Positions 1 through 61,157 of a DNA stretch of 64,000 nucleotides are shown in pieces. The notes under the pieces were generated by a model. That model ran no database searches and had not been told where the DNA came from. It was given only the letters and a program-made list of their open reading frames with translations. This stretch comes from a virus: the IMG/VR virus record IMGVR_UViG_3300005617_000581; one strand, written 5' to 3'. The stretch's first letter is position 1, and the number at the start of each line of letters is the position of its first letter. A program made the position numbers and the translations under genes.

Positions 1-66
1 TTGAACGACGCCGAGCGTAAATCCGCCGGCGAACCCCTGACAATCGATCGCCGTGTATACCACGAG

Positions 67-516
67 CTAGACTGTATCACCAGCGCCGCAGTAACGCGTA
101 CTGCAGGTCACGGCTGGATCGTCTAGGGCGCGGTGACACCAAGGACACTTGGACGAGACGCCGTCGTAGCCGTCGGCCTGGCGCTTAGCGTTGAGACGAC
201 CCTTCGTCTCGTATCGGGCAAATACCTCGCGCGCGAGCTCGACCGGATCGTCGCCGAGCGCCAGCAGCATGTTGATCCAAAAGTGCAGCACGTCGACCAG
301 CTCGCCGACGTACGCGTCGCGCTCGATGTGCCGCGACGTTGCCCACGACTTCCAGCCAACCTCGTCGAGCGCCTCACACAGTTCCATGATCGCGGCCTGC
401 TGCATCTCGCGAATGTAGACGACGCGCTCGGCGGCGAGCATCCGCTGAAAGTTACGTCCGAACGACTCGGTCTGTAGGTCGTGCTGGAGTCGGAACAGTT
501 CCTCAAACCTATCCAT
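67..516 (-). CDS. MazG-like all-alpha nucleoside triphosphate pyrophosphohydrolase (possible dCTP/dUTP-clearing enzyme) with C-terminal Cys-rich tail
   Basis: The ELCEALDEVGWKSW and EL(a)DVLHF helices match the MazG/dimeric-dUTPase EExxE and WKxW pattern. There is a C-terminal CPWC...CSTRYC segment. It is translationally coupled to the upstream gene by an ATGA overlap. Confidence 0.5.
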   Translation of the reverse strand: MDRFEELFRLQHDLQTESFGRNFQRMLAAERVVYIREMQQAAIMELCEALDEVGWKSWATSRHIERDAYVGELVDVLHFWINMLLALGDDPVELAREVFARYETKGRLNAKRQADGYDGVSSKCPWCHRALDDPAVTCSTRYCGAGDTV

Positions 517-1208
517 CAGCGTTGCGCCTCATTCTTAATGATCTCGGCGATTGCCTCGGGCGTTCCGAGGTCGCGCGAACTTACCAACACGGTTCGGTTT
601 CGACCGCCGTGCATGAACTGGGCGAGGTACGGTCCGATCGGCAGCTCGTGACCCGGCTCGACGAAGTGAATCATGCGGTTGAGCACCGAGTAGATGTTGT
701 CGATGCTGCCGACGAACGGCCCGACCCAGCACGGAACGAACAGCTCTTCGGTGTGCGGTAGTACCTTCTCGCGCCAGACGTTGTCGTCGTCGAGGAACGT
801 GTACCGCTGGGCGTCCTCGACGTTCAACATGCGGACGCCGATCGCGCCGTTGTGCACGACCCGCCGGACGTCCTCGTCGGTCGACAGGTTGTCGCCGAGC
901 AGCACCAGCACCCGATCGTCATCGGCGCGACAGGACGTTACGCCGTACAACAGCGCGTGTCCGGGTCCGCGCGGAGACGGCTGCAGGACGAAGAAGACCT
1001 CGTCGACGTCCTCTACCTCGCGCACGATGTCGATCGAATTCTCGGGCGCGACGACGACGACGATCCGCTCGGCGCGCGCCTCGCGCGCGAGCAGCACCGC
1101 ACGGCGTACCAGCGAGACGCCGTCAATCTTAAGCAGTGGCTTACCATACGGACCGGTGATCGACTCGATACGCCGGCCGCGACCTGCGGCGAGAACTACC
1201 GCATCCAT
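516..1208 (-). CDS. Nucleotidyltransferase (sugar-phosphate / MobA-GlmU-like NTP-transferase fold)
   Basis: The N-terminus VVLAAGRGRR...GKPLL is the classic G-rich NTP-transferase signature. Length is 230 aa. Confidence 0.55.
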   Translation of the reverse strand: MDAVVLAAGRGRRIESITGPYGKPLLKIDGVSLVRRAVLLAREARAERIVVVVAPENSIDIVREVEDVDEVFFVLQPSPRGPGHALLYGVTSCRADDDRVLVLLGDNLSTDEDVRRVVHNGAIGVRMLNVEDAQRYTFLDDDNVWREKVLPHTEELFVPCWVGPFVGSIDNIYSVLNRMIHFVEPGHELPIGPYLAQFMHGGRNRTVLVSSRDLGTPEAIAEIIKNEAQR

Positions 1209-2074
1209 CGTTCGACCTCCTCGACCAGCTTGTTAACGAGGAGCTGGAGCTCGTGTCGAATAGGTTCGGCCGGCGCCGTTCGGACGCCGCGCGCGGTATG
1301 GATCGCCGCGAAGTAGACCGCGGCGCGCGCCTCGTTCAGGTCGAAGCCGCGGTCGTCGTCCAGCCACATGTTGAGTACCTCGGCCACGGCGACCCGCGGT
1401 GGGTGGACGTCCCACTTGTCGGCGACCTCGCGCCGGTTGTAGCGGATCCGCTCGTAGCCGACGGCGGTCTGGATGACGCGGCCGACGTCGAGAGCCTCCA
1501 CGTCCGGCAACGCGGAGCAGCTCGGAATCGGATCGATCAGAACCCACGAGGGCTTGGCGAACGGCAGGTCCTGACGATAGAGCAGGTTCTCGGCGATCGG
1601 ATCGCCGTGGGTCAACGCGCGTTGTAGCGACGGCCAGTCGATCGACGCGGCGTAGCGGTCCAGCGTCTTGCGGTGCTGCGCGAGTCCGGCCTGGTTGAGC
1701 AGCTTAGCGACGTAGCGCCGGTGCTGGCGCGCGTTGTAGTAGTTGAGAGCCTCGAACCCCATTCCACGCAACCCAAATCCCCACAGTCCGACCTGAAGGT
1801 TGTCGAGAATGATCTGACAGATGTTCGCCCGGTCGCAGATCAGGTCTTCCAGCTCGGGCTGCTTCAGCAGCTCCATCTCGTAGCCGTTCGCTAGCACCCG
1901 ATAGACCTGCGGAAGAGACGCAACAGTGGTGTGGTTGCGCAGCCAGATTCCCTGGTCGCGGACGCGCGTTCCGGTACGCGGGGCGTCGAACTTCTTAACC
2001 TCGTCCTTCTCGAACACCAGCGTGGCGCCCGAGGAACCGGTCTGGATGTTAGTCTTGATGTCGTCGTTACTCAC
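1196..2074 (-). CDS. APH/choline-kinase-fold phosphotransferase (possible anomeric sugar kinase)
   Basis: It has the Brenner motif HGDPIAENLL and a downstream VLIDPIP (D-x-D/E) typical of aminoglycoside/choline/hexosamine kinase-like kinases. GTG start with a 13-nt overlap with the next gene. Confidence 0.5.
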   Translation of the reverse strand: MSNDDIKTNIQTGSSGATLVFEKDEVKKFDAPRTGTRVRDQGIWLRNHTTVASLPQVYRVLANGYEMELLKQPELEDLICDRANICQIILDNLQVGLWGFGLRGMGFEALNYYNARQHRRYVAKLLNQAGLAQHRKTLDRYAASIDWPSLQRALTHGDPIAENLLYRQDLPFAKPSWVLIDPIPSCSALPDVEALDVGRVIQTAVGYERIRYNRREVADKWDVHPPRVAVAEVLNMWLDDDRGFDLNEARAAVYFAAIHTARGVRTAPAEPIRHELQLLVNKLVEEVERWMR

Positions 2075-3429
2075 AGTCCCAACCTCGACTCGATGATCTT
2101 AAGGTAGTCCAGCGCGGCGATCGCGTCCTCGAAGTGTCGCCGCTGAAGCGTTACGGCCCACGTCCAGACCTCGCGGTCCACGTGAACCATGCGCACGCGC
2201 CGCGCGAGCTCCTTCGGCGACTTGACGCGCAGGAAGTCGTGTAGCTCCGTCGGCGCGCCGTTCAGGACGTGGTCCTGGTCGTCGTAGCGCGGGTGAAAGA
2301 AGCAGACGACGCCGAGGGCGAACGCCTCCCACGGCTTAGCGGTCGCCCAGCCCGAACCGGACGCGGGGGTCGTCAGCGTGCTGTGAACCGTGTGCATCGT
2401 CCCGGGGTAGTCGGCGAGCGGCAGCGGCTCGATCTCGCGGTTCAGGATCCGCCGCGACGCCTCGGACCAGTGCCCGTGCACCCACGCCGGATCCAGGGGG
2501 AGCACGTACTCCTGGAGCGCGCGCAGCCGCGACCTCTGCGGGGCGACCTCGCGCTTGGTCTCGTTGACGACGATGCCGAACGCGGCGCGGCCGTCCCAGG
2601 TATCGTCGAACTGCAGCGTATCGCCGAACGGCGTTCCAGGAATAAGTGACGAGATCTCGAGCCGCGCGTAGACGTTGCGTACCCGCGATTCCCAGATGCC
2701 GTCGTAGCTCTTCGCGGGAAACGCGGCGAGCAGTTCGTCGCCGCGGCCGTAGCGCTCGTGCTTCGCCGTCGAGGTGAACGTGTACTGCGACAGTACCGGG
2801 TGGCACCACGCCCACGCGGCGTCGCGGAACTTGACGTAGTTGCGCGCGTCCGAGTTGAGCAGCACCTCCTCGCGCGCGATCGGGTCGACGTCGCGCCACG
2901 CGTTGACGTTGTGCAGCAGGTAGCCCGCGTACAGCGTCGCCCAGTCGTACGGCTTCGTCAGCGTCGACCGGTCGCGGATCGACGGCAGCGGCGAGTTCGA
3001 CGTGCCGTGCTGGCCGATCCACATGACGATCTCGTCGAGCGACGCGAACGTATCGCGTGTCAGATCCACCATGAGCTGACGAACCCTTAGGTGATCGTCG
3101 ATCGTCAGGTTCGAGTAGTTCAGCCCGTCGGCGTTGAGCCGTTGACGCAGGATCGGCGCCCAGGTGCGCCACGGATTGAGGACGTTCTCGGGTAGACCGA
3201 CATCGGTTGGCTCCTCGCCCGAGTTGCGGCCCACTAGGAGGAAGTCGACGTCCGGGTGTCGTTCGGCGAGCAGCTTGAGGGTCGGTACCATCTCGTGATC
3301 GCCGCCGAGGCTGCCGCAGTTGGCGAGCTGAAGCGGCATGCTGCGGCCGAGCTTCGCGTAGCCGATGATCTTCCGTCTCACTTTCGTCTCCCTCTCGTGG
3401 TGACCGAGGAGGACTGCGTCCTCGGCCAC
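2071..3429 (-). CDS. Hypothetical 452-aa protein; possible Rossmann/GT-B-like transferase acting with the adjacent kinase and nucleotidyltransferase
   Basis: The N-terminus KIIGYAKLGRS...DVDFLLVGRNSGEE is a Rossmann-like beta-alpha-beta. It sits at the head of the nucleotide-modification gene block. No decisive motif was found. Confidence 0.3.
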   Translation of the reverse strand: MAEDAVLLGHHERETKVRRKIIGYAKLGRSMPLQLANCGSLGGDHEMVPTLKLLAERHPDVDFLLVGRNSGEEPTDVGLPENVLNPWRTWAPILRQRLNADGLNYSNLTIDDHLRVRQLMVDLTRDTFASLDEIVMWIGQHGTSNSPLPSIRDRSTLTKPYDWATLYAGYLLHNVNAWRDVDPIAREEVLLNSDARNYVKFRDAAWAWCHPVLSQYTFTSTAKHERYGRGDELLAAFPAKSYDGIWESRVRNVYARLEISSLIPGTPFGDTLQFDDTWDGRAAFGIVVNETKREVAPQRSRLRALQEYVLPLDPAWVHGHWSEASRRILNREIEPLPLADYPGTMHTVHSTLTTPASGSGWATAKPWEAFALGVVCFFHPRYDDQDHVLNGAPTELHDFLRVKSPKELARRVRMVHVDREVWTWAVTLQRRHFEDAIAALDYLKIIESRLGL

Positions 3430-3469
3430 CGTACCAGTTCTAACCTACGCCCCGCAAGTCGGTCTTGAT

Positions 3470-4024
3470 CTAGCCGACCGGCGTCGTGAACGGGTCGTCC
3501 GGCGCTGGAACCGACGGCTGACGTCCGAGCTCGGCCGCGACCGCGGGCGGCGTAGAAGGCGACGACGGGCCGGCTGCGGCGGGCACGACGAATCCGCCGA
3601 GCTGCCCGCCGGAGCCTCCGCCGGGACCTCCGAGGGCCTTCTTGTACTCCTTGATGTTCTCCCGCATGGTGCCGTTCCACTCGCGCGGTTCGACGACGGC
3701 GACGGCCCGGCGGCCCAGCAGCGCCTGCGCAATGACGTCCAGCGGGGCGTTCGAGTTGCGCTGGAAGAAGCCGCTGTCCAGGCCGAAGATCGCCATCTGG
3801 CCGAAGAAGATCCGCATCGCGTTGCCGTTCTCGGCCGAGATGACGAACTGGTCGAACAGCGTCTGTCCCGCCTTCGGACCGGACTCGACGCGGTGCTTAA
3901 CCTTGATCATGGGTTTGTCGTTGGACGACTTCGTGGCGACGGATTCGACGACCACGACGGTGAACTCACCCTCGAGGATCGTTGTGGCGTCCTTGTGGAG
4001 GCTCGCCCAGTTGATGGTCGACAA
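3470..4024 (-). CDS. DUF669-like phage single-strand DNA-binding protein candidate with Gly/Pro-rich C-terminal tail
   Basis: 184 aa lying directly downstream of the Sak4-like ATPase, which is a conserved phage pairing. It has a low-complexity GGPGGGSGGQLGG tail. Confidence 0.4.
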   Translation of the reverse strand: MSTINWASLHKDATTILEGEFTVVVVESVATKSSNDKPMIKVKHRVESGPKAGQTLFDQFVISAENGNAMRIFFGQMAIFGLDSGFFQRNSNAPLDVIAQALLGRRAVAVVEPREWNGTMRENIKEYKKALGGPGGGSGGQLGGFVVPAAAGPSSPSTPPAVAAELGRQPSVPAPDDPFTTPVG

Positions 4025-4034
4025 CGCGTACTCC

Positions 4035-4802
4035 TTACCGGTTGGGATAGATCGCGGCCAGCATGTCCGCGATGTTCGGTTCCTGGATGATGTCGGGAAG
4101 CCGCCCCTGAACGCGCTCGCCGACGACGTACGCCGGGTTGATACCGGCGCCGATCAACAGCTTCTTGTGCTTGACGTTTCCCTCCGAGCCCGCCTCGACC
4201 TCGGTGTAGAGGACGCCGCAGATGTCGACCCAGTACGGAAGCGTGTCGCGGATGCCGCCCTGCATGAACGGCCGCCACTGGCCGTTGTGCATCGCCGTCT
4301 CGCAGTTGAAGACGACGCACCGGATCGTGTTCGGCTGGAGCGTCAGGTCGCGGAAGCCGCGGATCAAGCCGTCCATCTGGTCGAGCAGCTGTCCCCAGCG
4401 CTGCTGGTCCATCAGCGCCGAACCGGTCCGGATGTTGGCCTTGCACCGGCGCTGGATCTCGGTGATCGAGTCGAGCACGATCGAGACGAAGTCGTTGTCG
4501 TACTGGGTCAGCGCCTGAAAGACCGCGACCATCGTCTGCCACGAGTCGACGTGTACGCGCGCGACGTCCCACGTGCCGTCGTAGCGTGGGATCGGCTCGG
4601 TGACCGGGTTCCACGTGATCTTTCGGAGCGGCTTCGTGCCGCGGTAGCCGATGTGATCTATGAACTTCCAGCTACCCTCCGCGTCGATGACGAGGATCGG
4701 TGCCGGCGCGGTCGACGACAGCGTCGACTTACCCTCCTTGGACGCCGAGTGGATCAACATCGAGACGACGTGATCCTTATCGATGACGCGCTCGTACGTC
4801 AC
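4035..4802 (-). CDS. RecA-like NTPase (AAA_24 / Sak4-like recombination ATPase)
   Basis: Walker A is SASKEGKST, followed by a RecA-like core. Position between the SSB-like gene and the Cas4-like nuclease fits this call. Confidence 0.55.
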   Translation of the reverse strand: MTYERVIDKDHVVSMLIHSASKEGKSTLSSTAPAPILVIDAEGSWKFIDHIGYRGTKPLRKITWNPVTEPIPRYDGTWDVARVHVDSWQTMVAVFQALTQYDNDFVSIVLDSITEIQRRCKANIRTGSALMDQQRWGQLLDQMDGLIRGFRDLTLQPNTIRCVVFNCETAMHNGQWRPFMQGGIRDTLPYWVDICGVLYTEVEAGSEGNVKHKKLLIGAGINPAYVVGERVQGRLPDIIQEPNIADMLAAIYPNR

Positions 4803-7662: not shown

Positions 7663-8080
7663 GCGCGAGCAGCACGTGGCGCTGCGCGGCGTTCGCGTGC
7701 TGGTCGCGGGACGCGACGTACCAGCCCAGGTCGCGCAGCCGTTGATTAGACGCGATCCTTACCGCGGGACCCGGGTTCTGGTGCACCAGCTGCGCGCCGA
7801 GTTCGTTCGCGATCGCGTCGACCTGGCCGAGTACCTCCAGCGCGTGAGGCTGACGCGTCTTACGCGATCCCTGGACGAACCTCTCGATCGCGAAACACGT
7901 CGGACCCTGGGGTGTCGAACGCGGCGGCCAGTGGTGGTCGTCGAGCATGCGCCGGATCATCGTCCCGACGGACGACGCCTGGACCTCGGAGGTTTCCGGT
8001 CGGACGCAGTCGTCGCACCAGAGCGCGAGGCCGGTGACCTTGCCCGGATCGACGCCGAAGATAATCACTCGTCGACCCAC
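7616..8080 (-). CDS. RuvC-like Holliday junction resolvase
   Basis: The N-terminus IFGVDPGKVTGLALW matches the RuvC GIDPG-TG motif. Length is 154 aa. Confidence 0.65.
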   Translation of the reverse strand: MGRRVIIFGVDPGKVTGLALWCDDCVRPETSEVQASSVGTMIRRMLDDHHWPPRSTPQGPTCFAIERFVQGSRKTRQPHALEVLGQVDAIANELGAQLVHQNPGPAVRIASNQRLRDLGWYVASRDQHANAAQRHVLLALASLFPETFASIVGI

Positions 8081-9840
8081 TCCTTCTTGTCGCCCCAGCG
8101 TTCGCCGTACGAGACCGACGCGGTGATCGGCACCTCAAACTGCTGGTCGTCGTTCATCACCTGGCGCAGCGCGTGGACGGCGTCGGGAACGTCCTCGTTC
8201 GGTACCTCGAGGAAGATTTCGTCGTGGACCGGCGCGACCATGTAGTCGCCGAGTCCCGCGTCGGCGAGCTCGATCTGCTTACGCTTGAACAGCGCCGCGG
8301 CCCAGCCCTGGATCAGGTAGTTCACGAGCGCGTACTCCTTGCCGGGATCGGCCGGGTGCCGCCGGTCCGTCAGCGGGCAGACCGCGTAGGCGACTCCCTC
8401 CTCGTCGCGCCGTCGGACCGAGTCGCTAAAGACCTGCTGCGCGAACTTCTCGATGCCCGGGTATGCCGCGTTGAGTCCGTCGTTGACGTAGCGCATCTGG
8501 TCGTATGAGACGCCGGCCGTCGCGGCCTGGCGCGCGACACCCGCGCCGTAGATCTTCGCGTACATGGCGTTCTTCGTCGGCTGGCGCCGCGGGTCGGACT
8601 TGACCAGCGACGGATCGGAGAAGATGTTGCGCGCCACGGTGACGAAGAAGTCCTCAGGCGCCCGAAACGCGGCGACGAGTCCAGGATCCCGCGACATGAT
8701 CGCGAGGCCGCGCATCTCGATCTGGTCGAAGTCCGCCATCAGCAGCGTGTGGCCGGGCCGGGCGCGCACGCAGTTGCGGACGACCGTCGCCGCCGGGTTG
8801 TGCTCGTTTTTACGTGGTAGGTTCTGCAGGTTCGGGTGGTCCATCGAGCAGCGGCCGGTCCGCGTTCCGAGCGTGTTGATCGACGGGTGAACGCAGCCGT
8901 CGGACTGCGTGTGTTCCAGGTAGAACTTGAGGTACGTCGACGCCATCTTCTGGTACTGGCGCCGCCGTAGGACGGCCTGCGCGAGAGGGTGGTCGATTCC
9001 GTCGAGGACGCCCTTGTCCAGCGAGACGGCGCCGGACTTGGTGGCCTTGGAAAACTGGAAGCCCGCGTCCGCGAGGACGCGGATCACCTCGGCGTTGGAC
9101 CCGGGCTTGATGCCGTACTCGGCGGCGCACCAGCGCTCGACGCGCTCGGCGTAGTCGTTGAACAGCCCGTAGTTGTCGCGTACGTAGTCGACGTCGATCG
9201 GCGCGCCGTGCGCCTCCATCCGCTGCGCGACCCACTGGTACTCGTTCTCGAGTTCGTACGCGCGCGGCGCCTGGTCGAGCACCTTCGGTAGGTGGATGTC
9301 GCTGAGCCGCCGCGTCAGCACCGTGTCGAGCGCGCCGTAGAACCAGTACCCGGGATAGTCGGACGGTATCGTCGCCCACGTCCAGCCGTTCTCGGACATG
9401 GCGCGCTCGAGGACGCCCTGCGACGCGCGCGCCCGCGGGTCGACGTGCCGCGCGGCCTGGTTCTTGAGGGCGCGGGACTGCGTCGGTTCGAGGACGTGCG
9501 CCATGACGCCGACGTCACGAATCCGCGACCGGTCGACGCGGACCCCGGCCTGGTCGAGGAACGACCAGTCGAACTTAGCATTCATCATGTCGACCGGCCC
9601 GACGTGCTCGGCGACGGCTCCGGCGAACAACCCGGACCAGCGTCGCCAGGGCAGCGCCCAGCCGTCGTCGGCGTCGCCGATCTGGACGAGGCGGACGTAG
9701 TCGCCCGAGTGCCAGTAGAAGCCGGTCGTCTCGGTGTCGATCCCCAGCGGCTCGCCACGGCGCGCGCCGATCCACTCGGCGAACGCGCGGACGTCGTCGA
9801 GCGACTCGACGAGGTGCATCCGCGTGTCGTCCAGCGTCAC
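8065..9840 (-). CDS. polA: DNA polymerase I (family A) with 3'-5' exonuclease domain
   Basis: Exo I motif is LGIDTETTG. Pol motif A is DFDQIEMRGLA, motif B is RRQPTKNAMYAKIYGAG, and motif C is VHDEIFLEV. Confidence 0.85.
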   Translation of the reverse strand: MTLDDTRMHLVESLDDVRAFAEWIGARRGEPLGIDTETTGFYWHSGDYVRLVQIGDADDGWALPWRRWSGLFAGAVAEHVGPVDMMNAKFDWSFLDQAGVRVDRSRIRDVGVMAHVLEPTQSRALKNQAARHVDPRARASQGVLERAMSENGWTWATIPSDYPGYWFYGALDTVLTRRLSDIHLPKVLDQAPRAYELENEYQWVAQRMEAHGAPIDVDYVRDNYGLFNDYAERVERWCAAEYGIKPGSNAEVIRVLADAGFQFSKATKSGAVSLDKGVLDGIDHPLAQAVLRRRQYQKMASTYLKFYLEHTQSDGCVHPSINTLGTRTGRCSMDHPNLQNLPRKNEHNPAATVVRNCVRARPGHTLLMADFDQIEMRGLAIMSRDPGLVAAFRAPEDFFVTVARNIFSDPSLVKSDPRRQPTKNAMYAKIYGAGVARQAATAGVSYDQMRYVNDGLNAAYPGIEKFAQQVFSDSVRRRDEEGVAYAVCPLTDRRHPADPGKEYALVNYLIQGWAAALFKRKQIELADAGLGDYMVAPVHDEIFLEVPNEDVPDAVHALRQVMNDDQQFEVPITASVSYGERWGDKKEWVDE

Positions 9841-10343
9841 CGGTTGCTCCTGTCGAGGAATATGTCGGTGGACAGATCCTTATTGACGACGACGACGAGC
9901 CCGCAGTCGCGCATGAACCGGTACGAGTCGTCGCTGCGCCGGTGTTCGTGTTCCCGCTGCGAGTCCACGACGACGAACTGAAGGCCGGAGTTGGCGATGA
10001 GTTTAGCACAGGGCGTGCAGACGTGACTCGTGACGTAGAGCGTTCCACCCATGCGCAGCGTGCGGTCGCTCATGGTGATCGCGTTAGCCTCGGCGTGAAG
10101 CGCCGGGCAGTCCGAATAGTCGTTCGCCACCGGTTCGCCGTGGTTGCGACCGCGGGTGCACCAGTTGCCACAGCGCGCGTCCGCGTGGTCGAAGCCGCGT
10201 GGCGGTCCGTTGTATCCCTCGCCGATGACCTTACCTTCGACGTCGGTGATCAGCGCGCCGACCTGGTCGCGTTCGCATAGGCTGCGCTTCCCAAGGTCGC
10301 GCGCCATGGCGATGCGTACCTGGTGCCACGACGGTCGGGTCAC
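9837..10343 (-). CDS. dCMP deaminase
   Basis: Zinc-ligand motifs CPALHAEANAI (HAE) and CTPCAKLI (PCxxC) are both present. Confidence 0.8.
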   Translation of the reverse strand: MTRPSWHQVRIAMARDLGKRSLCERDQVGALITDVEGKVIGEGYNGPPRGFDHADARCGNWCTRGRNHGEPVANDYSDCPALHAEANAITMSDRTLRMGGTLYVTSHVCTPCAKLIANSGLQFVVVDSQREHEHRRSDDSYRFMRDCGLVVVVNKDLSTDIFLDRSNR

Positions 10344-11191
10344 TTCGCGACCACCAGCTCGGCGAACGTGTCCAGGTACCAGCGTTCGCTGTCCGTGGGC
10401 AGCGCGACGCTGCCGTTGCGGATCGCGCGGGCGCGCTGGCGGACGTCGTCGAAGTTGTCGCCGCCGTTGCCGATCCCGAAGTCGGGATAGCGTTCCTCGG
10501 TCGCGAGTCCCACCCGGTCAGTGACCTGGTACGACAGGTTGACGTGCTCGTGGTAGAGGTGCATCGACCACGCGGTGTGTGTGTACGTCCCGGGAAGGAC
10601 GCCGAGAACGTTGGCCAGCGTCAGCTGCAGCTGCGTGAACTGGAACATGTCGTACGGCAGGCCCAGCCACGCGTCGTTGGAGCGCATGGTGACGCGCATG
10701 TTCAGCGAGTCGTGGCGCGGACCGAGGCTGAAGCCGAGCGCGACGGTGCACGGGTAGTCGGCCTTGTTGCGGTAGTGGTTGTCCAGGTGGGAATCCCACA
10801 GCGTCACGACCGCTTGGCGACTCCACCAGTCGTCGCGCAGCTTGTCGACGACGAAGCCGAGCTGGTCGGCGACGCGCTCGCCGTAGGCGCCCCAGAAGTG
10901 GCCGTTGGGTTCGAGAAACTTCTTGAAGCTCGGGGCGATCCCGACCAGCCAGTCGGGATCGGAAAACCCGCCGATCAGCTGGATCGCCTCGGCGGCCGCG
11001 ATGCGCGCGTTGAGTCCCCGGCCGCAGCCGGTCGGCAGCGCGAACAGCGGCGACTCGACGTGGATCGTGTAGTCGTCCAGGTTGTACGTCAGTCCGTTGC
11101 GGGACGGGCGGCGCTGGCCGCGGCGGCGGAGGTCCTCGAGGACCTGGGGGTAGACGTCGCGACAGTAGCGACCGTCGATGAGTCGGGCCAC
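10340..11191 (-). CDS. Thymidylate synthase homologue (ThyA fold), possibly a pyrimidine hydroxymethylase/methylase with altered base specificity
   Basis: The catalytic Cys context YPCTVALGF is present. The RSNDAWLGLPYDMFQF block aligns to ThyA R(S)xD..LGxPFN, but carries Asp (PYD) where ThyA has the uracil-specifying Asn. Confidence 0.7.
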   Translation of the reverse strand: MARLIDGRYCRDVYPQVLEDLRRRGQRRPSRNGLTYNLDDYTIHVESPLFALPTGCGRGLNARIAAAEAIQLIGGFSDPDWLVGIAPSFKKFLEPNGHFWGAYGERVADQLGFVVDKLRDDWWSRQAVVTLWDSHLDNHYRNKADYPCTVALGFSLGPRHDSLNMRVTMRSNDAWLGLPYDMFQFTQLQLTLANVLGVLPGTYTHTAWSMHLYHEHVNLSYQVTDRVGLATEERYPDFGIGNGGDNFDDVRQRARAIRNGSVALPTDSERWYLDTFAELVVAK

Positions 11192-12159
11192 GTTCCTAGG
11201 TCCTCCTGCTTAGTAAGCGCGAGCGCGATCAGGTTACCGTACTCGCCGCGCTTAAGATGATGAAAGCGCCGGACGTACTGCGGGTGAGGTACGACGCCGT
11301 GGGGCACCGCGAGCTGCGCGAGTCGTCGCTGCGCGTTGCGGCCGAGCGCGACGGTACGCGGGCGTCCGAGCGAATCCCACAGCCGGCGCGGATCGTCGAC
11401 GTCGCACGCGTTGGCGAGCCCGTAGCGGATCGTCGTTCCCGCGTCGGCGAGCGCGCCGCGCAGGAAGTGTCCCGACGTACCCGGGAACGGCAGGAACGCC
11501 GGATCCGTGTTGGCGCGCGCCTCACGGGACGACGGGTCGACGTGGCGCAGCTCGTGGCGGACGTCGCCGAACAGCAGGAACTCTGGGTGCCGAGGTCCCG
11601 AGTACGTCGTCGTCACCAGGTCGACGACCGTGGACTCGCGGACGTGCGCCAACTTGACGACGCGTTCGACCTCCGAGTTCAGCGGCGACGACCACTGGTA
11701 GAACTGCTGCAGCTGGAACGAGCGCAGCCGCACGTCGCGGTAGGCCCTGTCGACCAGCGGCAGCTCGTCGAGCAGCGCGTCGACGTCCTCGCCGCGCTCG
11801 GCGTAGACGCGCCGGTACGTCGCCAGGTCGCCGTAGACGTAGACCACGAGGGCGCCGAGCCGGGCGAGCAGGGACTCGATGGCCCACCACGCGGCGTCGT
11901 CCAGCTGCGAGACGCGACCGCGCAGGGCGGGATAGACGCGCTCCCCCCAGTGCCAGCGGTCGAGGATTAGGTGCGGCGACCTGCCGGGTCGATACCCCGA
12001 GATCGGCCGGAGGTACTCGTCCAGTGGGTGGCCGACCGGGGGTCCCTTGTGCATCCGGACGACGCCGCGCGCGTGGTCGCGTTCGTCGAGAAATTCTTCC
12101 AGTGCCTCGGCGAGCGTCGTCTTACCGCCGCCGTCCGGGCCCTCTAGGATTATGAGCAC
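11089..12159 (-). CDS. Thymidylate-kinase-like P-loop kinase fused to a divergent uracil-DNA-glycosylase-superfamily domain
   Basis: The N-terminus LIILEGPDGGGKTTLAEAL is the dTMP-kinase signature. C-terminal LPFPGTSGHFL and HPQYVRRF resemble UDG family-4 motifs (PFVGxAGxLL, HPSxxxR). There is an approx 100-nt overlap with the downstream ThyA-like gene through a low-complexity tail. Confidence 0.5.
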   Translation of the reverse strand: MLIILEGPDGGGKTTLAEALEEFLDERDHARGVVRMHKGPPVGHPLDEYLRPISGYRPGRSPHLILDRWHWGERVYPALRGRVSQLDDAAWWAIESLLARLGALVVYVYGDLATYRRVYAERGEDVDALLDELPLVDRAYRDVRLRSFQLQQFYQWSSPLNSEVERVVKLAHVRESTVVDLVTTTYSGPRHPEFLLFGDVRHELRHVDPSSREARANTDPAFLPFPGTSGHFLRGALADAGTTIRYGLANACDVDDPRRLWDSLGRPRTVALGRNAQRRLAQLAVPHGVVPHPQYVRRFHHLKRGEYGNLIALALTKQEDLGTWPDSSTVATVATSTPRSSRTSAAAASAARPATD

Positions 12160-12683
12160 CGGTGCCTCATCGCCGGGTGGAGTACCTCGTCGTCGCCGCG
12201 CGCGAGCTCGACGAGCCGCTCGAGCCAGCCGACCCAGTAGATGGACTCGGTGGGTCGCCCGGGTAGTTCACCCTCCGGCGACGGCTCGCTGGTAAGCGCG
12301 TGGTCGCGCGCCGCGCGCAGCCGGTACGTCCGATGGAGGTAGCCGGTCTGCTCGGCCGTCGAGCGCTCGCGGCCGAACCAGTACGACTGGACCTGGTGCC
12401 GCCCGCGGTAGCGCGAACGGCGCCCCCAGTTGCGCGCTGCGCCCGCGACGTCGGCGAGTCCTAGGGCTAGCCACGACGTCGCGTCGCGGGTCGTAGCGAC
12501 GGCGCGACGCGCGCCTGCGGCGATCCGGCGCCGGACCTCGGGAAGCTCGGCGACGAGCTGACGCGTCGGCGTCGGCTGCGCGTAGATCGGGACGTCGTCG
12601 ATAGAAACGAGGAGGTCGCCGTCCCCGGTGGACTCGGGGACGGCGACCTCGGATTGGATTGGCAGTGCTGCGACTGTGGTCAC
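12150..12683 (-). CDS. Hypothetical protein
   Basis: 177-aa ORF in the leftward operon with a 10-nt overlap with the downstream gene. No recognisable motif. Confidence 0.45.
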   Translation of the reverse strand: MTTVAALPIQSEVAVPESTGDGDLLVSIDDVPIYAQPTPTRQLVAELPEVRRRIAAGARRAVATTRDATSWLALGLADVAGAARNWGRRSRYRGRHQVQSYWFGRERSTAEQTGYLHRTYRLRAARDHALTSEPSPEGELPGRPTESIYWVGWLERLVELARGDDEVLHPAMRHRCS

Positions 12684-12738
12684 TTGGGGGCCCTTCGGTT
12701 GAACTGGAGCAACCTAGGTATCCTACAACCGACCGATG

Positions 12739-13800
12739 CTATTGCATCAGCGTTCGCAGCGTCTCGGACAGGGCTTCGTACTTGGCGACCTTGGCGAGCA
12801 TCTCGTCCGAGACCGTCGGCGAATCGGCGATCTTCTTGAGTTCGCCGCGCAGCGCGTCGAACTGGCGCTGGACGTTGGCCGTCGTGACGATGAGCGTCGC
12901 GAACGCGTCGGCGAGCTGGTCGAGAATGCCGTAGACGGCCGCGAGGTGCGCGGACAGCGGCGTCCCGGTCGCTGCTGGGTGCTGTTGGGTAGGTGGTGTC
13001 ACGGTAAAGTTTATCCTCGTCTCTCGTTCTCGCTTGAGCTGTTCCTCGAGTTCCTGGCGCGCGGCCTCGGCGGCGCGGGCCGCGCGAACGGCGATCATCC
13101 GGGTGGAGTGAATCTTCAGGTGCGCCCGGATCGAACCCGGGTTGAATCCCCACGTCGTGCACTCGGGCGCGTTCGGCGAGTTGCACATGAACACGGTCCG
13201 GCCGTCCTCGAGGAGCGTCTCGAGGACGGTGCTCGTCGTGTACGGTCCGTGCGCGTTGCCGAACGGCATGACGGCGGGCTGCGCCGCGATCACCCGCGAA
13301 CCGTCGATCAGCGTCCGCGACGGCGCGCAGAACAGCGATACGTACGGACGGTCCGGGCGCGCGTCGTGCGCACCCGGGTCGACCAGCGCCATCCGGCGGG
13401 GTTGCTGGTGCTGCTGTGCGTCCGTCTCGGACGCGGCCGGTTCGTCGGGTTCGGTCCGCGAGCCGTCGCCTCCCCCGTTCGCGATCATCGCGGCGTTGAT
13501 CTCGTCGATGCGCGCCTGGTTCGCCGCGCGGTCGGCCGCGATCTTCAGCAGTCGGTTGTTCTCGCGTACCCGCGCCGTGGCGGCCTCCAGCTTGGCCAGT
13601 CCGTGTCGGTTCGCCTCGGCGATCGCGTTCTTTTCGACGTAGCCGCGGCCCGTCGGCGTCGACGCGAACGTAAACAGCAGCTTCGCGCGCTGGTCGAGCA
13701 CCTTGTAGTGTCCCGAGTTCGAGTAGACGACCTGCCAGCCGACGTCCTCGCAGCGTTCCTTGAGCTTGAGCGGCCACTCGCGGCCGGTGCTAACTCCCAC
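12739..13800 (-). CDS. Hypothetical protein with coiled-coil regions
   Basis: 353-aa ORF containing a C2H2-like FMCNSPNAPECTTWG..H..H segment and K/E-rich helical stretches. Confidence 0.45.
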   Translation of the reverse strand: MGVSTGREWPLKLKERCEDVGWQVVYSNSGHYKVLDQRAKLLFTFASTPTGRGYVEKNAIAEANRHGLAKLEAATARVRENNRLLKIAADRAANQARIDEINAAMIANGGGDGSRTEPDEPAASETDAQQHQQPRRMALVDPGAHDARPDRPYVSLFCAPSRTLIDGSRVIAAQPAVMPFGNAHGPYTTSTVLETLLEDGRTVFMCNSPNAPECTTWGFNPGSIRAHLKIHSTRMIAVRAARAAEAARQELEEQLKRERETRINFTVTPPTQQHPAATGTPLSAHLAAVYGILDQLADAFATLIVTTANVQRQFDALRGELKKIADSPTVSDEMLAKVAKYEALSETLRTLMQ

Positions 13801-14420: not shown

Positions 14421-14894
14421 TTAGACCACCGCCCGGTTGACGTACGCGTCCCGGATGTCCGCGTCGAACTGGGACGCGACGGCCAGGGCGCGCGCGTGCT
14501 GCGGCGGCATGAACGTCTCGCCCGGCCGGTCCCCACCTGGGGGACGCCGAACGGTCAGGAACTCGACGACCTCGTACGCCGATTGGGTCTCGAGGACCTT
14601 CTCGAGCGTTACCTCGCCGGGCGCGCGCGACCGGCCGACCCGGACGACGACGTAGTCGTCGCGACTCGGCTCCACGTGGTGACGCCGGTAGATCGCCAGT
14701 TCGATCCAGCGGCACGCCGAGCACGTCGTGCCGCGCGGTACGACGCCGTCGGCGTCGTGCGGCCTCGCGTTGTGTCCTATCTTTTGACTGGAGGCGACGG
14801 CGAGGACGCGGCCGTCGAACTCGTAGCTTCGACCGTCGGCCGTGAACGTGATCCGGTGCAGTTCGCCGACGGCGAACCTAGGCATGGTAGTCAA
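14421..14894 (-). CDS. Hypothetical protein (first gene of leftward operon)
   Basis: 157-aa ORF whose start abuts the divergent control region. Confidence 0.45.
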   Translation of the reverse strand: MTTMPRFAVGELHRITFTADGRSYEFDGRVLAVASSQKIGHNARPHDADGVVPRGTTCSACRWIELAIYRRHHVEPSRDDYVVVRVGRSRAPGEVTLEKVLETQSAYEVVEFLTVRRPPGGDRPGETFMPPQHARALAVASQFDADIRDAYVNRAVV

Positions 14895-15071
14895 GTCAAT
14901 TCTCCTCTCATCTCCTTGTTGGTCTTCGGTTTCGGGTCGGTCCCCGCGGATAAAATCAGCATATGTTTTAGCCCCGAAACGCGCCCCCGGGATCGTCTCT
15001 GGCGAGTTCGATCCCGGGGGCGACGCGGTCCCTGGGGAGGACCGTGGAGCCCCGAAGGAGGCGCCCAGCTG
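14895..15071. promoter_or_regulatory. Divergent intergenic control region between leftward and rightward operons, carrying a 13-bp inverted repeat and an AT-rich near-palindrome
   Basis: CGCCCCCGGGATC at 14982-14994 pairs with GATCCCGGGGGCG at 15010-15022 across a 15-nt spacer. TAAAATCAGCATATGTTTTA lies at 14951-14970. The RBS GAAGGAGG precedes GTG at 15072. Confidence 0.4.
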
Positions 15072-17522
15072 GTGACTACACTACCACAAGCCCCGCTAGA
15101 ACCCCGCGACCAGGGGGAACGTATACTCGCGGCCGCGCGGGAGCACGCCGCGGCCGGAGTTCGGATCTTTCCGGTCCACGGACTGCGGCGCGTCGTTGCG
15201 CCCGAAACCGGGGGACTCGACGTCCGCACGGAGCTACGGTGCGGCTGCGGCGACGCCGCGTGCCCCAACCCCGGTAAGCACCCCGTCGGGCTGCTCGTCC
15301 CGAACGGGCACAACGGCGCGACGACCGAGCCGGGCACGATCGACCGGTGGTTTAGGCTGCCGTCGGCCCGCGACGCCAACGGCTGGATCCCGTACAACAT
15401 CGGCGTCGCGACCGGGCGCGGACTGGTCGTCGTCGACGCCGACGTCAAGCAGGCGCGACCCGACCTGCCGACGGGACTGGACGTACTGGACGACTGGGAG
15501 ACGTGGACCCAGGGGACGACGCTTCCCGACACGCTGACGATCCGCACCGGCGGCGGCGGCCGCCACCTGTGGCTGCGCGTCGATCGGAACGTCCGCGTCG
15601 CGGCGCGCAACCGGGTACTGCCCGGGATCGACCTGAAGGGCGACGGCGGCTACGTCCTGGCGACGCCGTCGCTGCACGTTTCGGGCCGCTACTACGAGGT
15701 AGCGCGCGACCTGGAGGCCGCCGAGGCGTCCGTCGAGCTGGTCGCGTGGCTGCTAACGGTCCGCGGCGGCCGCTACGTCACCAAGCGCGCGGGCGACGCC
15801 GCGGGCGTCGTCCCGGACGAGTACGACTTTAGGGCGATCGTCGGCGGCGTCCGCGGCTGCGCGGCCGGGCATCGGGACTACTTCGTCAACGACCTGTGCT
15901 TCAGGCTGCGGCGCGCCGGCTCGACGGTCGAGGAGGCCGCCCGGGCCCTCAGGCGCGAGTGGCTGCGCATGGAGCAGCCCGCGGGCGACGAGTTTCCGTG
16001 GGAGTCCTGCCTGTACAAGCTGCGCCGCGTCTGGGACGAGGTCACGCCGCAGGAGGTCGTCGACATACCGGCGTGGCGACCGCCGTCGGCCGCGTCGGCG
16101 ACGTCCGGCGCCGTCGAGCCCGAGGACGACGACGGACTCGGCGGGCTGTCGGCCGCCGAGGCGCTGGTCCGGCCGGAGCTGACGTTCCTGCTGACGGACA
16201 CCGGCAACGGGATCCGGTTCGCCCAGCGGATGCGCGAGGTCGTCCGCTACTGCCCGGGCGAAAATAGGTGGTACACCTGGGACGGACTCCGGTGGCGGCT
16301 GGACGCCAAGCGCGAGTCCTTCCTCCTAACGGAGGAGGTCGTCAAGGACCTGTACGTCGAGGCCTCGCGGCTGCCCGAGCACGAGCGCGACCGGGTCGAG
16401 CGCTGGGCGATCACCAGCCAGTCCGTCGCCCGCCGCGAGGCGATGCTGTCCGCCGCGGGGGCGCAGCCCGGGATCGCGATCGAACCGGACGACATGGATC
16501 GGGACCCGTGGCTGCTGGTCGTCCGCAACGGGACGCTGGACCTGCGGACCGGCGCGCTGCGCGCGTCGGACCCGCGGGACCTATGCACGCGGCTCGCCGA
16601 GGTCGACTTCGACGCCGGGTCGCGGGCGCCGCTGTGGCTGAAGCACGTCGAGTTCGTCACCGACGGCGACGACGTGCTCGCCGAGTGGCTGCGCAGGGCC
16701 GTCGGCTACACGCTGACGGGACTGACGGACGAGCAGAAGCTGTTCTTCCTGTGGGGCAACGGCGCCAACGGCAAGTCCACGTTCGTCGACGTCGTCGCCT
16801 CGATGCTCGGCTCGTACGCCGCGCAGGCGGACGCGGGACTGCTGGTCGGCGAGCGCGAGCACCCGACGCAGCTCGCCGGGCTGCGCGGGGCGCGGCTCGT
16901 CGTCGCGGACGAGACCGAGGCCGGGCGCAGGCTCGCCGAGCGCCGGATCAAGGCCCTGACCGGCGGCAAGAAGGTCCGGGCGCGCTACATGCGCCAGGAC
17001 TACTTCGAGTTCACGCCCCGCTTTAAGATCTGGATCACGGGCAACCACAAGCCGGAGGTCGCCGGTACGGACGGCGGGATCTGGCGCCGCCTCAAGCTCG
17101 TCCCGTTCCGCGCGACGCTGGACGACGACCGCCGGATCCTAGGATACGACGAGGTGCTCCACCAGGAGCTGCCGGGCATACTGAACTGGGCCTTAGACGG
17201 ACTCGCCGCCTGGCGGACGATCGGCGGACTCGGCGAGCCCGAGGTCGTCGGCGAGGCGACGCGCGAGTACCGGTCGGAGGAGGACACGATCGGGCTGTGG
17301 CTGTCGGAGCGCGCGGACCTGGGGGTACGGGACGCCGCCGCGGCGAACGCGCAGCTGTACGAGTCCTACCGCTGGTGGTGCCACGCCAACGGGATCCAGG
17401 ACGTCCGGTCGAACGTCGCGCTCGGCCGGGAGCTCGCCGCGCGCGGACTCAGGCGGGAGATCGTCAAGCTGGACGGCAAGACCACCCGCGTCTGGTACGG
17501 CGTCGCGCTGCGCGAGCAGTAG
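15072..17522 (+). CDS. Bifunctional DNA primase-polymerase / D5-type helicase (prim-pol N-terminus, P4-type primase C-terminal NTPase)
   Basis: The N-terminus GVRIFPVHG...HPVGLLVPNGH is prim-pol-like. The C-terminus has Walker A GNGANGKSTF and Walker B LVVADE. Start is placed at in-frame GTG 15072 with the GAAGGAGG RBS. The ORF track opens at 14496, but that stretch overlaps the divergent minus-strand gene. Confidence 0.8.
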   Translation: MTTLPQAPLEPRDQGERILAAAREHAAAGVRIFPVHGLRRVVAPETGGLDVRTELRCGCGDAACPNPGKHPVGLLVPNGHNGATTEPGTIDRWFRLPSARDANGWIPYNIGVATGRGLVVVDADVKQARPDLPTGLDVLDDWETWTQGTTLPDTLTIRTGGGGRHLWLRVDRNVRVAARNRVLPGIDLKGDGGYVLATPSLHVSGRYYEVARDLEAAEASVELVAWLLTVRGGRYVTKRAGDAAGVVPDEYDFRAIVGGVRGCAAGHRDYFVNDLCFRLRRAGSTVEEAARALRREWLRMEQPAGDEFPWESCLYKLRRVWDEVTPQEVVDIPAWRPPSAASATSGAVEPEDDDGLGGLSAAEALVRPELTFLLTDTGNGIRFAQRMREVVRYCPGENRWYTWDGLRWRLDAKRESFLLTEEVVKDLYVEASRLPEHERDRVERWAITSQSVARREAMLSAAGAQPGIAIEPDDMDRDPWLLVVRNGTLDLRTGALRASDPRDLCTRLAEVDFDAGSRAPLWLKHVEFVTDGDDVLAEWLRRAVGYTLTGLTDEQKLFFLWGNGANGKSTFVDVVASMLGSYAAQADAGLLVGEREHPTQLAGLRGARLVVADETEAGRRLAERRIKALTGGKKVRARYMRQDYFEFTPRFKIWITGNHKPEVAGTDGGIWRRLKLVPFRATLDDDRRILGYDEVLHQELPGILNWALDGLAAWRTIGGLGEPEVVGEATREYRSEEDTIGLWLSERADLGVRDAAAANAQLYESYRWWCHANGIQDVRSNVALGRELAARGLRREIVKLDGKTTRVWYGVALREQ

Positions 17523-60065: not shown

Positions 60066-60073
60066 GAGGACGA

Positions 60074-61155: not shown

Positions 61156-61157
61156 CG

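Follow-up and report, generated by a model that had tools for sequence, protein, structure and literature searches.

Three genes of an uncultured soil phage with an actinobacterial host probably act late in a T-even-like pathway of cytosine hypermodification, where they add the sugar. The phage genome is roughly 65 kb; the window, by which we mean the whole 64,000-nucleotide stretch of DNA analysed here, includes a WhiB gene and a Pol I nearest to those of actinophages. The three genes and the pyrophosphatase gene that follows them are:

2071-3429, minus strand: transferase gene; maximal open reading frame of 452 aa, likely product of 436 aa (GTG at 3381)
1196-2074, minus strand: kinase gene; 292 aa, small-molecule kinase with an APH/choline-kinase fold
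516-1208, minus strand: nucleotidyltransferase gene; 230 aa, a single domain assigned by profile to the sugar-1-phosphate family
67-516, minus strand: dUTPase_2/MazG-like gene; all-alpha NTP pyrophosphatase (Pfam dUTPase_2, PHROG 18650)

Judging from their reading frames, the transferase, kinase and nucleotidyltransferase genes are translationally coupled. The TGA stop of the transferase shares 4 nt (GTGA) with the GTG start of the kinase, and the nucleotidyltransferase ATG, which has the Shine-Dalgarno sequence GAGGAGG upstream of it, overlaps the 3' codons of the kinase by 13 nt. The dUTPase_2/MazG-like gene directly abuts the nucleotidyltransferase stop. Positions 1-4200 yielded no sigma-70-like promoter and no intrinsic terminator, which is consistent with one transcription unit for the locus. 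The neighbours of the transferase in what is otherwise a pure DNA-metabolism operon are an SSB and the MazG-type NTPase. The initial annotation, which had described the three genes, an overlap between the kinase and nucleotidyltransferase genes and the motifs HGDPIAENLL and VVLAAGRGRR, was accurate on all of these at the minus-strand coordinates given above.

The transferase had been annotated as a 452-aa Rossmann-type protein. A reading frame of that maximal length exists; its true start, however, is likely the GTG at 3381, yielding 436 aa, because this codon is preceded by GAGGGAG, the 98% identical database protein P0001 is 436 aa long, and conservation in the family begins near residue 19 of the 452-aa frame. 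Structure prediction, proposed by the initial annotation as a check on this protein, yielded a transferase fold that bears out the Rossmann description, namely a two-Rossmann-domain GT-B architecture (pLDDT 86.9). T4 DNA beta-glucosyltransferase (BGT) is the top PDB structural neighbour of the model, ahead by 4.5 Z units; T4 AGT also scores, and the other GT-B neighbours after BGT are mostly lipid or small-molecule enzymes (PimA, BshA and WaaG). T4 BGT is also the top PDB sequence-profile match, in the nucleotide-binding helix region, but this similarity is not significant (hmmsearch E 0.17; hhalign probability 47.5% over 69 columns), and no Pfam match to the transferase, the T4 BGT domain (CAZy GT63) included, was obtained at E values up to 0.1. 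On this weak alignment the invariant residues K365 and E368 align with R269 and E272, the nucleotide-binding residues of BGT. A counterpart of Asp100, the catalytic base of BGT, was not located in the transferase; the invariant Q140 and H141 come after the strand that appears to correspond to the Asp100 strand. The protein is also ~85-100 residues longer than T4 BGT, and its pI of 6.3 (family median 6.8; T4 BGT 9.05) is not that of a basic protein, so that global charge gives DNA binding no support. In fold the product resembles T4 BGT; its gene context, a replication operon that also co-occurs with the ThyA-like gene, makes it a predicted DNA 5hmC glycosyltransferase.

The kinase adopts a protein-kinase-like fold closest to APH/ChoK members, as had been proposed for it, and carries the motif THGDPIAENLL at residues 155-165. 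Its HxDxxxxN catalytic loop, downstream metal-binding Asp and beta3 ATP-binding Lys are all intact, and 29 homologues all share H156, D158, N163, D181 and K28. Pfam PF01636 gave no match in the window's kinase; it is carried by the homologue P0137, and a kinase from a related locus (L085:6007-6786) scores 28.2 bits against it (cut-off 23.2). The enzyme is predicted to act on an anomeric sugar, or on a sugar-phosphate. The nucleotidyltransferase reads AVVLAAGRGRR at residues 3-13, in which LAAGRGRR represents the (L)xxGxGxR signature, along with GD motifs. Its likeness to GlmU and MobA was borne out by Pfam scores above the gathering cut-offs for NTP_transf_3 (PF12804; 57.2 bits, cut-off 27, 3e-15) and NTP_transferase (PF00483; 38.8 bits, cut-off 21.2, 1e-9), and in the PDB it matches HddC (heptose-1-P guanylyltransferase), RmlA and GlmU best. 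Many NCBIfam sugar-1-phosphate nucleotidyltransferase families match it, all far below their equivalog cut-offs, and it is thus assignable by sequence to this family rather than to one sugar or nucleotide.

The expected acceptor is indicated by a nucleotide-metabolism block upstream of the three genes, the ThyA-like gene of which lies 7 kb away. The block comprises:

9837-10343, minus strand: dCMP deaminase (Pfam dCMP_cyt_deam_1 2.9e-14, PHROG 174 7e-33)
10340-11191, minus strand: ThyA homologue with a dCMP hydroxymethylase signature, predicted 5hm-dCMP synthase
11089-12159, minus strand: 356 aa, thymidylate-kinase-like P-loop at the N-terminus; candidate 5hm-dCMP kinase

The best PDB match of the ThyA homologue is the CMP 5-hydroxymethylase MilA. 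Aligned with E. coli ThyA, T4 gp42 and RB69 gp48, it shows L143D, C146, a retained D169 and N177D, within the motifs ADYPCT and MRSNDAWLGLPYD, and the same residue signature was found in 35 of the 37 related loci parsed. In such homologues N177D denotes a cytosine substrate and an acidic residue at L143 denotes water access and a hydroxymethyl product, while every tested 5hoC synthase has D169N (PMC13326640). The combination of N177D and L143D with D169 kept therefore predicts 5-hydroxymethyl-dCMP rather than 5-hydroxy-dCMP or 5hm-dUMP as the product, and a hydroxymethylated base as the acceptor. The adjoining 356-aa protein matches PHROG 761 (3e-11) and, below threshold, Pfam Thymidylate_kin (6.6e-4); RB69, DLP3, RL38J1 and phage DSL-LC01 likewise have a TMK-like kinase gene in this position beside the ThyA homologue. 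The dCMP deaminase belongs to the same conserved block, the synteny of which is kept in relatives. The product of the 67-516 gene (Pfam dUTPase_2 1.1e-11; PHROG 18650 4e-31; best PDB match a dimeric dUTPase) is a candidate dCTPase/dUTPase that may exclude canonical dCTP.

These assignments suggest the following pathway. The ThyA homologue, on its active-site residues and synteny, would make 5hm-dCMP, which the TMK-like kinase would phosphorylate for the phage Pol I to build 5hmC into DNA during replication, while the MazG/dUTPase_2-like pyrophosphatase possibly removes dCTP. The APH-fold kinase would phosphorylate a sugar at its anomeric position, and the nucleotidyltransferase would combine the sugar-1-phosphate with an NTP to give an NDP-sugar for which the host's own supply falls short in amount or kind. 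The GT-B enzyme would then move the sugar to the hydroxymethyl group of 5hmC, as T4 BGT does, and the glycosylated base would shield the phage genome against host nucleases. In a variant of this scheme the kinase would use a sugar-phosphate, like AfhE, and a HAD phosphatase would then strip the distal phosphate. No HAD phosphatase is present within the window's cassette; the only HAD gene found in the window lies 22 kb away:

25326-25808, plus strand: HAD-family phosphatase of the HAD_PNKP type (Pfam HAD_PNKP 1.4e-24)

This gene was matched weakly by RB69 gp51, a HAD phosphatase (tblastn, E 0.005), and no relatives of it were retrieved; it is a possible accessory only if the kinase uses a sugar-phosphate. 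After the tail genes, at 57.5-63 kb, comes a second glycosylation cassette that could also consume NDP-sugar; it has three to four GT2 genes plus one GT4-like and one sugar C-methyltransferase gene.

T4 encodes a dCMP deaminase together with gp42, and the T4 set for 5hmC glucosylation (gp42 dCMP hydroxymethylase, gp1 kinase, gp56 dCTPase, cd deaminase and beta-glucosyltransferase) is paralleled in the window by a gp42-type ThyA homologue, a dCMP deaminase, a nucleotide kinase, an all-alpha NTP pyrophosphatase and a GT-B transferase to which T4 BGT is the closest solved structure. In both phages the modification genes sit inside the replication and nucleotide-metabolism module. On the other hand, T4 takes host UDP-glucose and has no donor-synthesis genes, whereas the window couples a kinase and a nucleotidyltransferase to the transferase, in a roughly 65-kb actinobacterial phage rather than a T4-like myovirus.

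Donor synthesis has its closest precedent in the AfhE of RB69 and HY126. The initial annotation had likened the pair to AmgK/MurU or NahK/GlmU; the folds and the two-step logic of an APH-fold anomeric kinase followed by a sugar-1-phosphate nucleotidyltransferase do agree, but the match is at the fold or superfamily level, and AfhE is closer. In the arabinosyl-5-hydroxycytosine pathway of RB69, DLP3 and HY126, the nucleotidyltransferase-kinase AfhE (gp52:53 in RB69) makes UDP-arabinose for DNA glycosyltransferases, and donor enzymes of the AfhE type have to date been known from 5hoC systems (PMC13326640). As in these phages, an APH-fold kinase and a sugar-1-phosphate nucleotidyltransferase adjoin a GT-B DNA glycosyltransferase (a predicted one in the window), and a TMK-like kinase adjoins the ThyA homologue. 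The window differs in that its kinase and nucleotidyltransferase are encoded separately and in reverse order, while some of its relatives carry the AfhE-type fusion, with the nucleotidyltransferase at the N-terminus and the kinase at the C-terminus. In an 11-sequence database the kinase and nucleotidyltransferase HMMs gave weak scores against RB69 gp52 (19.4 bits) and gp53 (21.7 bits), and phmmer with gp52 reached 27.8 bits at best against the fusions of the related loci, a weak but reciprocal family link. Arabinose-5-P isomerase was not found in the window by tblastn with RB69 gp55, the single query on which this negative rests, since Pfam covered part of the reading frames. Moreover, the ThyA homologues of the window and its relatives keep D169, unlike the RB69-type 5hodCMP synthase with D169N, and the RB69 and DLP3 transferases resemble GT4 enzymes (sucrose-phosphate synthase) whereas the window's resembles T4 BGT. 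Pyle et al. (bioRxiv 10.1101/2023.12.21.572611) report, from phage metagenome mining, 'subclass III' clusters of GT-B DNA glycosyltransferases that also resemble the window: their BGT-like GT-B genes are often near ThyS homologues and have epimerases, secondary glycosyltransferases and 'APH phosphotransferase' genes as neighbours. The clusters tested there were 5mC dioxygenase-dependent, in E. coli, and the authors note that phage DNA glycosyltransferases derive from lipid or small-molecule GT-B enzymes; the accessible text contains no description of clade-wise swapping of kinase/nucleotidyltransferase, mutase and epimerase cassettes beside one transferase family.

Such swapping is suggested by 74 related IMG/VR loci. 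These conserve a gene order that runs from SSB through the transferase and the sugar cassette to MazG, with the transferase always in the same replication operon and the dUTPase_2/MazG-like gene after the sugar cassette in nearly all of them. The initial annotation had asked whether the three genes co-occur with the ThyA-like gene in relatives: the transferase does so in 37/37 loci whose flank extends far enough to judge, but the combination of kinase and nucleotidyltransferase is confined to the window's own clade. In other clades the slot beside the transferase holds a nucleotidyltransferase alone, an AfhE-like fusion, a GT75 MtdL-like NDP-pyranose mutase (profile E 3e-60) or an SDR NDP-sugar epimerase, and the kind of cassette present agrees with the branching of the transferase tree. 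The gene order is permuted to kinase, nucleotidyltransferase, transferase in L074 and is kinase, transferase in L062/63, yet the adjacency to the transferase remains; L084-87 have the order GT-like gene, kinase, HAD, nucleotidyltransferase, MazG. In DSL-LC01, the closest phage in GenBank, the same slot is occupied by a different glycosyltransferase and a UDP-galactopyranose mutase. We propose that this slot is a swappable donor-supply cassette; alternative sugar-nucleotide cassettes in one position strengthen, rather than weaken, the donor-supply reading. In some relatives a gene for a C5-cytosine DNA methyltransferase lies beside the cassette, which would be unexpected if all cytosine were replaced.

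The GT-B/BGT fold, the ThyA co-occurrence and the dCMP-hydroxymethylase signature together support the earlier suggestion of activated-donor production and transfer to hydroxymethylated bases, and neither of the two outcomes that the initial annotation had named as refuting it was obtained. It is unlikely that the trio glycosylates something other than DNA (a host envelope glycolipid, a polymer like teichoic acid, or a protein of the phage or the host) and that its position in the replication operon is incidental. The lipid and small-molecule enzymes among the structural neighbours, the ancestry of phage DNA glycosyltransferases given by Pyle et al. and the non-basic transferase would fit such an acceptor, but T4 BGT leads those neighbours clearly and T4 AGT scores too, the dCMP hydroxymethylase-type gene co-occurs strictly, and the transferase lies between SSB and the MazG-type NTPase. 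A rather unlikely arrangement is one in which the transferase draws on a host NDP-sugar to modify DNA while the kinase and nucleotidyltransferase feed the 57.5-63 kb cassette, maybe for virion proteins: the GT2, GT4-like and C-methyltransferase genes there likewise need NDP-sugars, and RmlA-type enzymes are among those that the nucleotidyltransferase resembles. Against this, the pair always adjoins the BGT-like gene, coupled translationally, even in permuted order; GT2b, GT2c and GT4 genes occur in many relatives without the pair; and the cassette type follows the BGT-like tree.

That the acceptor is 5hmU, or 5-hydroxycytosine as in RB69, instead of 5hmC seems quite improbable: the deaminase adjoining the ThyA homologue would supply dUMP and AfhE-type enzymes have so far accompanied 5hoC, but N177D points to cytosine, L143D to a hydroxymethyl product and the retained D169 away from the tested 5hoC synthases, and T4 too has a dCMP deaminase beside gp42. 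We regard as very improbable a LicA/LicC-like function of the kinase and nucleotidyltransferase, which would then make a CDP-alcohol (CDP-choline, CDP-ethanolamine or CDP-aminopropanol) for a GT-B phospho-alcohol transferase, leaving a phosphodiester-linked alcohol.

Glycosylation of 5hmC by the three genes would extend a known strategy against restriction to a new group of hosts, by means of a new enzyme family. With a swappable donor cassette, related phage clades would put different sugars on their DNA. Tentatively, a large, wholly uncultured clade of actinobacterial phages of roughly 60-100 kb, with 382 transferase clusters at 50% identity, might replace cytosine with 5hmC bearing clade-specific sugars, through one BGT-like family and interchangeable cassettes, the dedicated kinase and nucleotidyltransferase of the window salvaging a sugar new to DNA and the GT75 mutases of sister clades supplying furanosyl donors. 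If true, these phages would possess a natural means of DNA 'glyco-diversification' in Gram-positive, high-GC hosts.

The window is a phage genome segment of high GC content (~65%), and no near-identical DNA was found among 50,697 GenBank phage records. Its left end is a series of minus-strand genes in which three ORFs of 452, 292 and 230 aa overlap by 4 nt and 13 nt, with a MazG-like gene abutting the last of them; neither promoter-like nor terminator-like sites occur within positions 1-4200. The initial annotation had read this trio as a possible sugar-activation and transfer module, and the ORFs, the overlaps and the motifs it quoted are all present. We evaluated this reading from the folds or families and catalytic motifs of the trio, its translational coupling, the signature of a neighbouring ThyA homologue, and synteny and co-variation in relatives.

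Minus-strand genes at the left end of the window, in transcription order
Start of the run, minus strand: primase-proximal genes
11089-12159, minus strand: TMK-like kinase
10340-11191, minus strand: ThyA-like gene
9837-10343, minus strand: dCMP deaminase
8065-9840, minus strand: DNA Pol I
Next, minus strand: RuvC-like gene
Next, minus strand: SNF2 helicase
Next, minus strand: PD-(D/E)XK nuclease
Next, minus strand: Sak4/AAA_24
3470-4024, minus strand: DUF669 SSB-like gene
2071-3429, minus strand: 452-aa ORF, transferase
1196-2074, minus strand: 292-aa ORF, kinase
516-1208, minus strand: 230-aa ORF, nucleotidyltransferase
67-516, minus strand: dUTPase_2/MazG-like gene

The most likely start codon of the 452-aa ORF is GTG 3381, for a protein of 436 aa; a GAGGGAG Shine-Dalgarno sequence precedes this codon, and a 98%-identical database protein is also 436 aa long. 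The protein has no match in Pfam, PHROGs or NCBIfam, a single-sequence PDB search gave nothing useful, and tblastn against the 50,697 phage records returned one weak partial match only and no usable cultured relative. Its homologues number at least 631 at 90% clustering (382 clusters at 50% identity) and come almost entirely from metagenome or sequencing-run assemblies, with three from NCBI. Many sit on contigs of about 60-100 kb, and none carries a functional name, the named ones being 'hypothetical protein'. A GT-B fold is nearly certain. The second-best match in BFVD, a viral protein, carries the annotation DNA beta-glucosyltransferase, and T4 DNA beta-glucosyltransferase (BGT) tops a profile search of the whole PDB, albeit at a non-significant E of 0.17. 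Over the C-terminal nucleotide-binding region, hhalign relates the two with 47.5% probability, in an alignment that pairs the invariant K365 and E368 with R269 and E272 of BGT. An equivalent of the catalytic Asp100 of BGT was not located, and the overall charge of the protein, which is not basic, offers no support for DNA binding (pI 6.3 versus 9.05 for BGT).

The 230-aa protein scores above threshold for Pfam NTP_transf_3 and NTP_transferase, and its best PDB relatives are the sugar-1-phosphate nucleotidyltransferases HddC, RmlA and GlmU. Every NCBIfam equivalog is far from its cut-off, so that none assigns a particular sugar or nucleotide. The 292-aa protein has no match by sequence in Pfam, PHROG, NCBIfam or PDB, nor by tblastn in the 50,697 phage records. 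Aligned with its 29 metagenomic homologues, it shows the features of a kinase: a beta3 Lys that is invariant (K28), the catalytic loop HGDxxxxN at 156-163 and an Asp further downstream (D181).

As for the base to be modified, the best PDB match of the ThyA-like protein is MilA, a CMP 5-hydroxymethylase. Aligned with E. coli ThyA, T4 gp42 and RB69 gp48, it retains Cys146 and Asp169 and has Asp at the N177 and L143 positions. In the study of Lee et al. 2026 (PMC13326640), N177D confers specificity for a cytosine nucleotide, acidity at position 143 accompanies a hydroxymethyl product in place of a methyl one, and D169N is the hallmark of 5-hydroxy-dCMP synthases in RB69-like phages. The enzyme thus bears a T4 gp42/MilA signature and is therefore predicted to make 5hm-dCMP; these residues recur in 35/37 related loci parsed. 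The TMK-like kinase, dCMP deaminase and MazG/dUTPase_2-like pyrophosphatase parallel gp1, cd and gp56 of T4, respectively, each with a presumed substrate. Genes for C5-cytosine DNA methyltransferases also lie beside or near the cassette in several relatives (L001 10590-12101; L022, L023, L025, L068), which would be unexpected if 5hmC fully replaced cytosine and is unexplained.

Searching IMG/VR with a pattern from the transferase alignment gave 74 loci, onto which the window proteins were mapped by tblastn (related loci carry L numbers here). The transferase invariably follows the SSB-like gene within this operon, and the ThyA-like gene is present in 37/37 loci whose flank extends past the dCMP deaminase, the other loci ending short of there. 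The kinase and nucleotidyltransferase occur as a pair only in the clade of the window (L001-L006, L008, L014) and, in a different order, in L074; L062/63 have the kinase without the nucleotidyltransferase. The co-occurrence with the ThyA-like gene that the initial annotation proposed to check for all three genes holds for the transferase, while the other two are a clade-specific option and not constant partners. The other loci with enough adjacent sequence, except L068, hold another sugar-nucleotide gene in the slot adjoining the transferase, ahead of the MazG-like gene.

Alternative contents of the slot
Nucleotidyltransferase alone: L011, L012, L072, L073
Fusions of ~500 aa, N-terminal nucleotidyltransferase and C-terminal kinase: L055-L061, L064, L070
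Protein of ~355 aa with profile matches to the GT75 NDP-pyranose mutase MtdL (PDB 7yua, E 3e-60), adjoining the transferase: L009, L013, L015, L017-L025, L030, L032-L035, L037, L038, L041, L044, L048, L050-L054, L065-L067, L069
SDR NDP-sugar epimerase/reductase
Combinations of these

The ~500-aa fusions share the architecture of AfhE, the nucleotidyltransferase-kinase enzyme of RB69/HY126 (RB69 gp52:53). In sister clades the MtdL-like protein is often paired with the SDR protein, for which the searches did not discriminate between fucose synthase and UDP-GlcA or UDP-Glc epimerases. Homology to MtdL, an enzyme described in PMC9937993, suggests that furanosyl sugar donors may be used for DNA modification in those clades. 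Cassette type follows clade in a neighbour-joining tree of the transferases, and taken as a whole the slot acts like an exchangeable cassette for donor supply, joined to a transferase embedded in DNA metabolism.

The converse search, from the kinase alignment, found the kinase only at this genomic position and added a more distant group, L084-L087 (for example, L085 4763-9063), with the order SSB, 415-aa GT-like gene, kinase, HAD phosphatase, nucleotidyltransferase, 339-aa unknown and MazG. The small HAD-like ORF has a DIDGVL motif, and the arrangement of kinase, phosphatase and nucleotidyltransferase resembles AfhE/AfhF. Tblastn detected no similarity between the 415-aa protein and the 452-aa family. 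Among GenBank phages the nearest is Actinomycetia phage DSL-LC01 (L079/L080; OQ999401.1 84381-96905), assembled from a metagenome. It shares the operon, running from TMK and ThyA via dCMP deaminase and PolA to SSB, but its slot before MazG holds a 348-aa glycosyltransferase followed by a UDP-galactopyranose mutase. Its glycosyltransferase was rejected as a homologue of the window transferase, homology not being detectable.

In the pathway proposed here, 5hm-dCMP would be made and then incorporated into DNA, the kinase would convert a sugar to its 1-phosphate, the nucleotidyltransferase would combine this with an NTP to give an NDP-sugar, and the GT-B enzyme would transfer the sugar to 5hmC-DNA, yielding glycosyl-5hmC-DNA. 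Alternatively, the kinase may act on a sugar-phosphate to give a bisphosphate, followed by a HAD step like that of AfhE/AfhF. A search of the window for RB69-type genes found no arabinose-5-P isomerase by tblastn with RB69 gp55, and one distant HAD gene, a stand-alone HAD_PNKP type (25326-25808, plus strand, E 1.4e-24) that RB69 gp51 HAD phosphatase matches weakly; it could serve the bisphosphate route to the sugar-1-phosphate, though 22 kb separate it from the cassette, and no relatives of this HAD were retrieved. The AmgK/MurU or NahK/GlmU analogy of the initial annotation is better replaced by AfhE; its sugar-activation and transfer interpretation is supported by the transferase fold, the BGT match and the constant company of the ThyA-like gene.

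The BGT match and the 37/37 co-occurrence with the ThyA-like gene speak against an acceptor other than DNA, and we hold with good confidence that the transferase acts on DNA. The active-site residues of the ThyA-like enzyme likewise disfavour a different base: 5hoC, as in RB69, was rejected on the retained D169, and 5hmU on N177D. A LicA/LicC-like route to a CDP-alcohol is possible at the level of fold only. The kinase and nucleotidyltransferase might instead serve a second glycosylation cassette at 57.5-63 kb. This too is disfavoured, as they stay next to the BGT-like gene when gene order changes, and the distal cassette is also found in relatives that lack both; its GT2b, GT2c and GT4 genes are conserved whether or not the pair is present. 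That the pair supplies the donor of the transferase is likely, and the 5hmC-glycosylation pathway as a whole, with a phage-made donor, merits moderate confidence.

The second cassette (57535-63063, plus strand) follows the tail genes, comprises three to four GT2-family genes and a Glyco_tranf_2_5 gene besides those listed below, and may glycosylate virion proteins.

Other genes of the window
14496-17522, plus strand: Prim-Pol/D5_N/DUF5906 primase-helicase, 1008 aa
26775-27647, plus strand: Band_7/SPFH protein
58860-60065, plus strand: sugar C-methyltransferase of the second cassette (Methyltransf_14/13/23)
61966-63063, plus strand: GT4-like gene of the second cassette
63137-63445, minus strand: WhiB regulator, actinobacterial host marker
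63457-63993, minus strand: DUF932 gene, cut by the window end

The WhiB gene and a Pol I nearest to those of actinophages identify the predicted host group as actinobacterial. The primase-helicase is on the strand opposite to the replication operon. Since genes spanning ~3.8 kb, one of them for a C5 cytosine methylase, separate the MazG-like and DUF932 genes of L001, comparable sequence probably falls outside the window, between its two ends. Two ORFs, 12680-13777 (minus strand, pI 11.9) and 60253-61155 (plus strand, pI 11.4), are probably wrong-frame or over-extended calls, typical for high-GC DNA; GC3 is higher in an alternative to the former, 12739-13800. In the structural region, a 1353-aa protein (37809-41870, plus strand) contains, at residues 676-851, an exoenzyme domain of the ADP-ribosyltransferase type (E 1e-42), and a separate ADP-ribosylglycohydrolase gene lies 5 kb upstream (31906-32982, plus strand, E 2e-51); the two could form a toxin and antidote-like pair.

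Glycosylated cytosines are a classic phage counter-measure to restriction and CRISPR, and such systems have been a source of widely used enzymes, T4 BGT serving 5hmC mapping. The window shares the logic of T4, a 5hmC pathway plus a BGT-like enzyme, although in sequence its transferase family is not significantly similar to BGT. To this it adds donor synthesis, recently described as phage-encoded in arabinosyl-5-hydroxycytosine phages (AfhE; PMC13326640). It differs from the RB69 type in that the predicted base is 5hmC and not 5hoC, yet its donor module is AfhE-like, with the kinase and nucleotidyltransferase genes split and reversed in order, and with neither isomerase nor HAD in the cassette. 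Its actinobacterial host group and the swapping of donor cassettes between clades of its relatives also set it apart from known systems. The preprint by Pyle et al. already notes BGT-like GT-B enzymes in metagenomes, often adjoining ThyS homologues, epimerases and 'APH phosphotransferase' genes (bioRxiv 10.1101/2023.12.21.572611), and the idea itself is unsurprising to specialists following the work of 2023-2026. In our literature searches, neither 5hmC nor DNA glycosylation turned up for actinophages.

The trio is a well-defined, experimentally tractable way into an uncultured phage clade, and the system probably leads to new DNA sugars. If the proposed pathway is correct, the transferase would define a new BGT-like DNA glycosyltransferase sequence family with hundreds of members and without a Pfam model, and the transferase/donor pairs would offer a ready-made panel for new DNA sugars and DNA-labelling enzymes. 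T-even-type pre-replicative 5hmC glycosylation would reach soil actinophages without a cultured representative, in a modular arrangement where the donor-sugar pathway beside the transferase is exchanged between clades, and matching defences, of the type IV restriction or DNA-glycosylase kind, would be predicted in their hosts.
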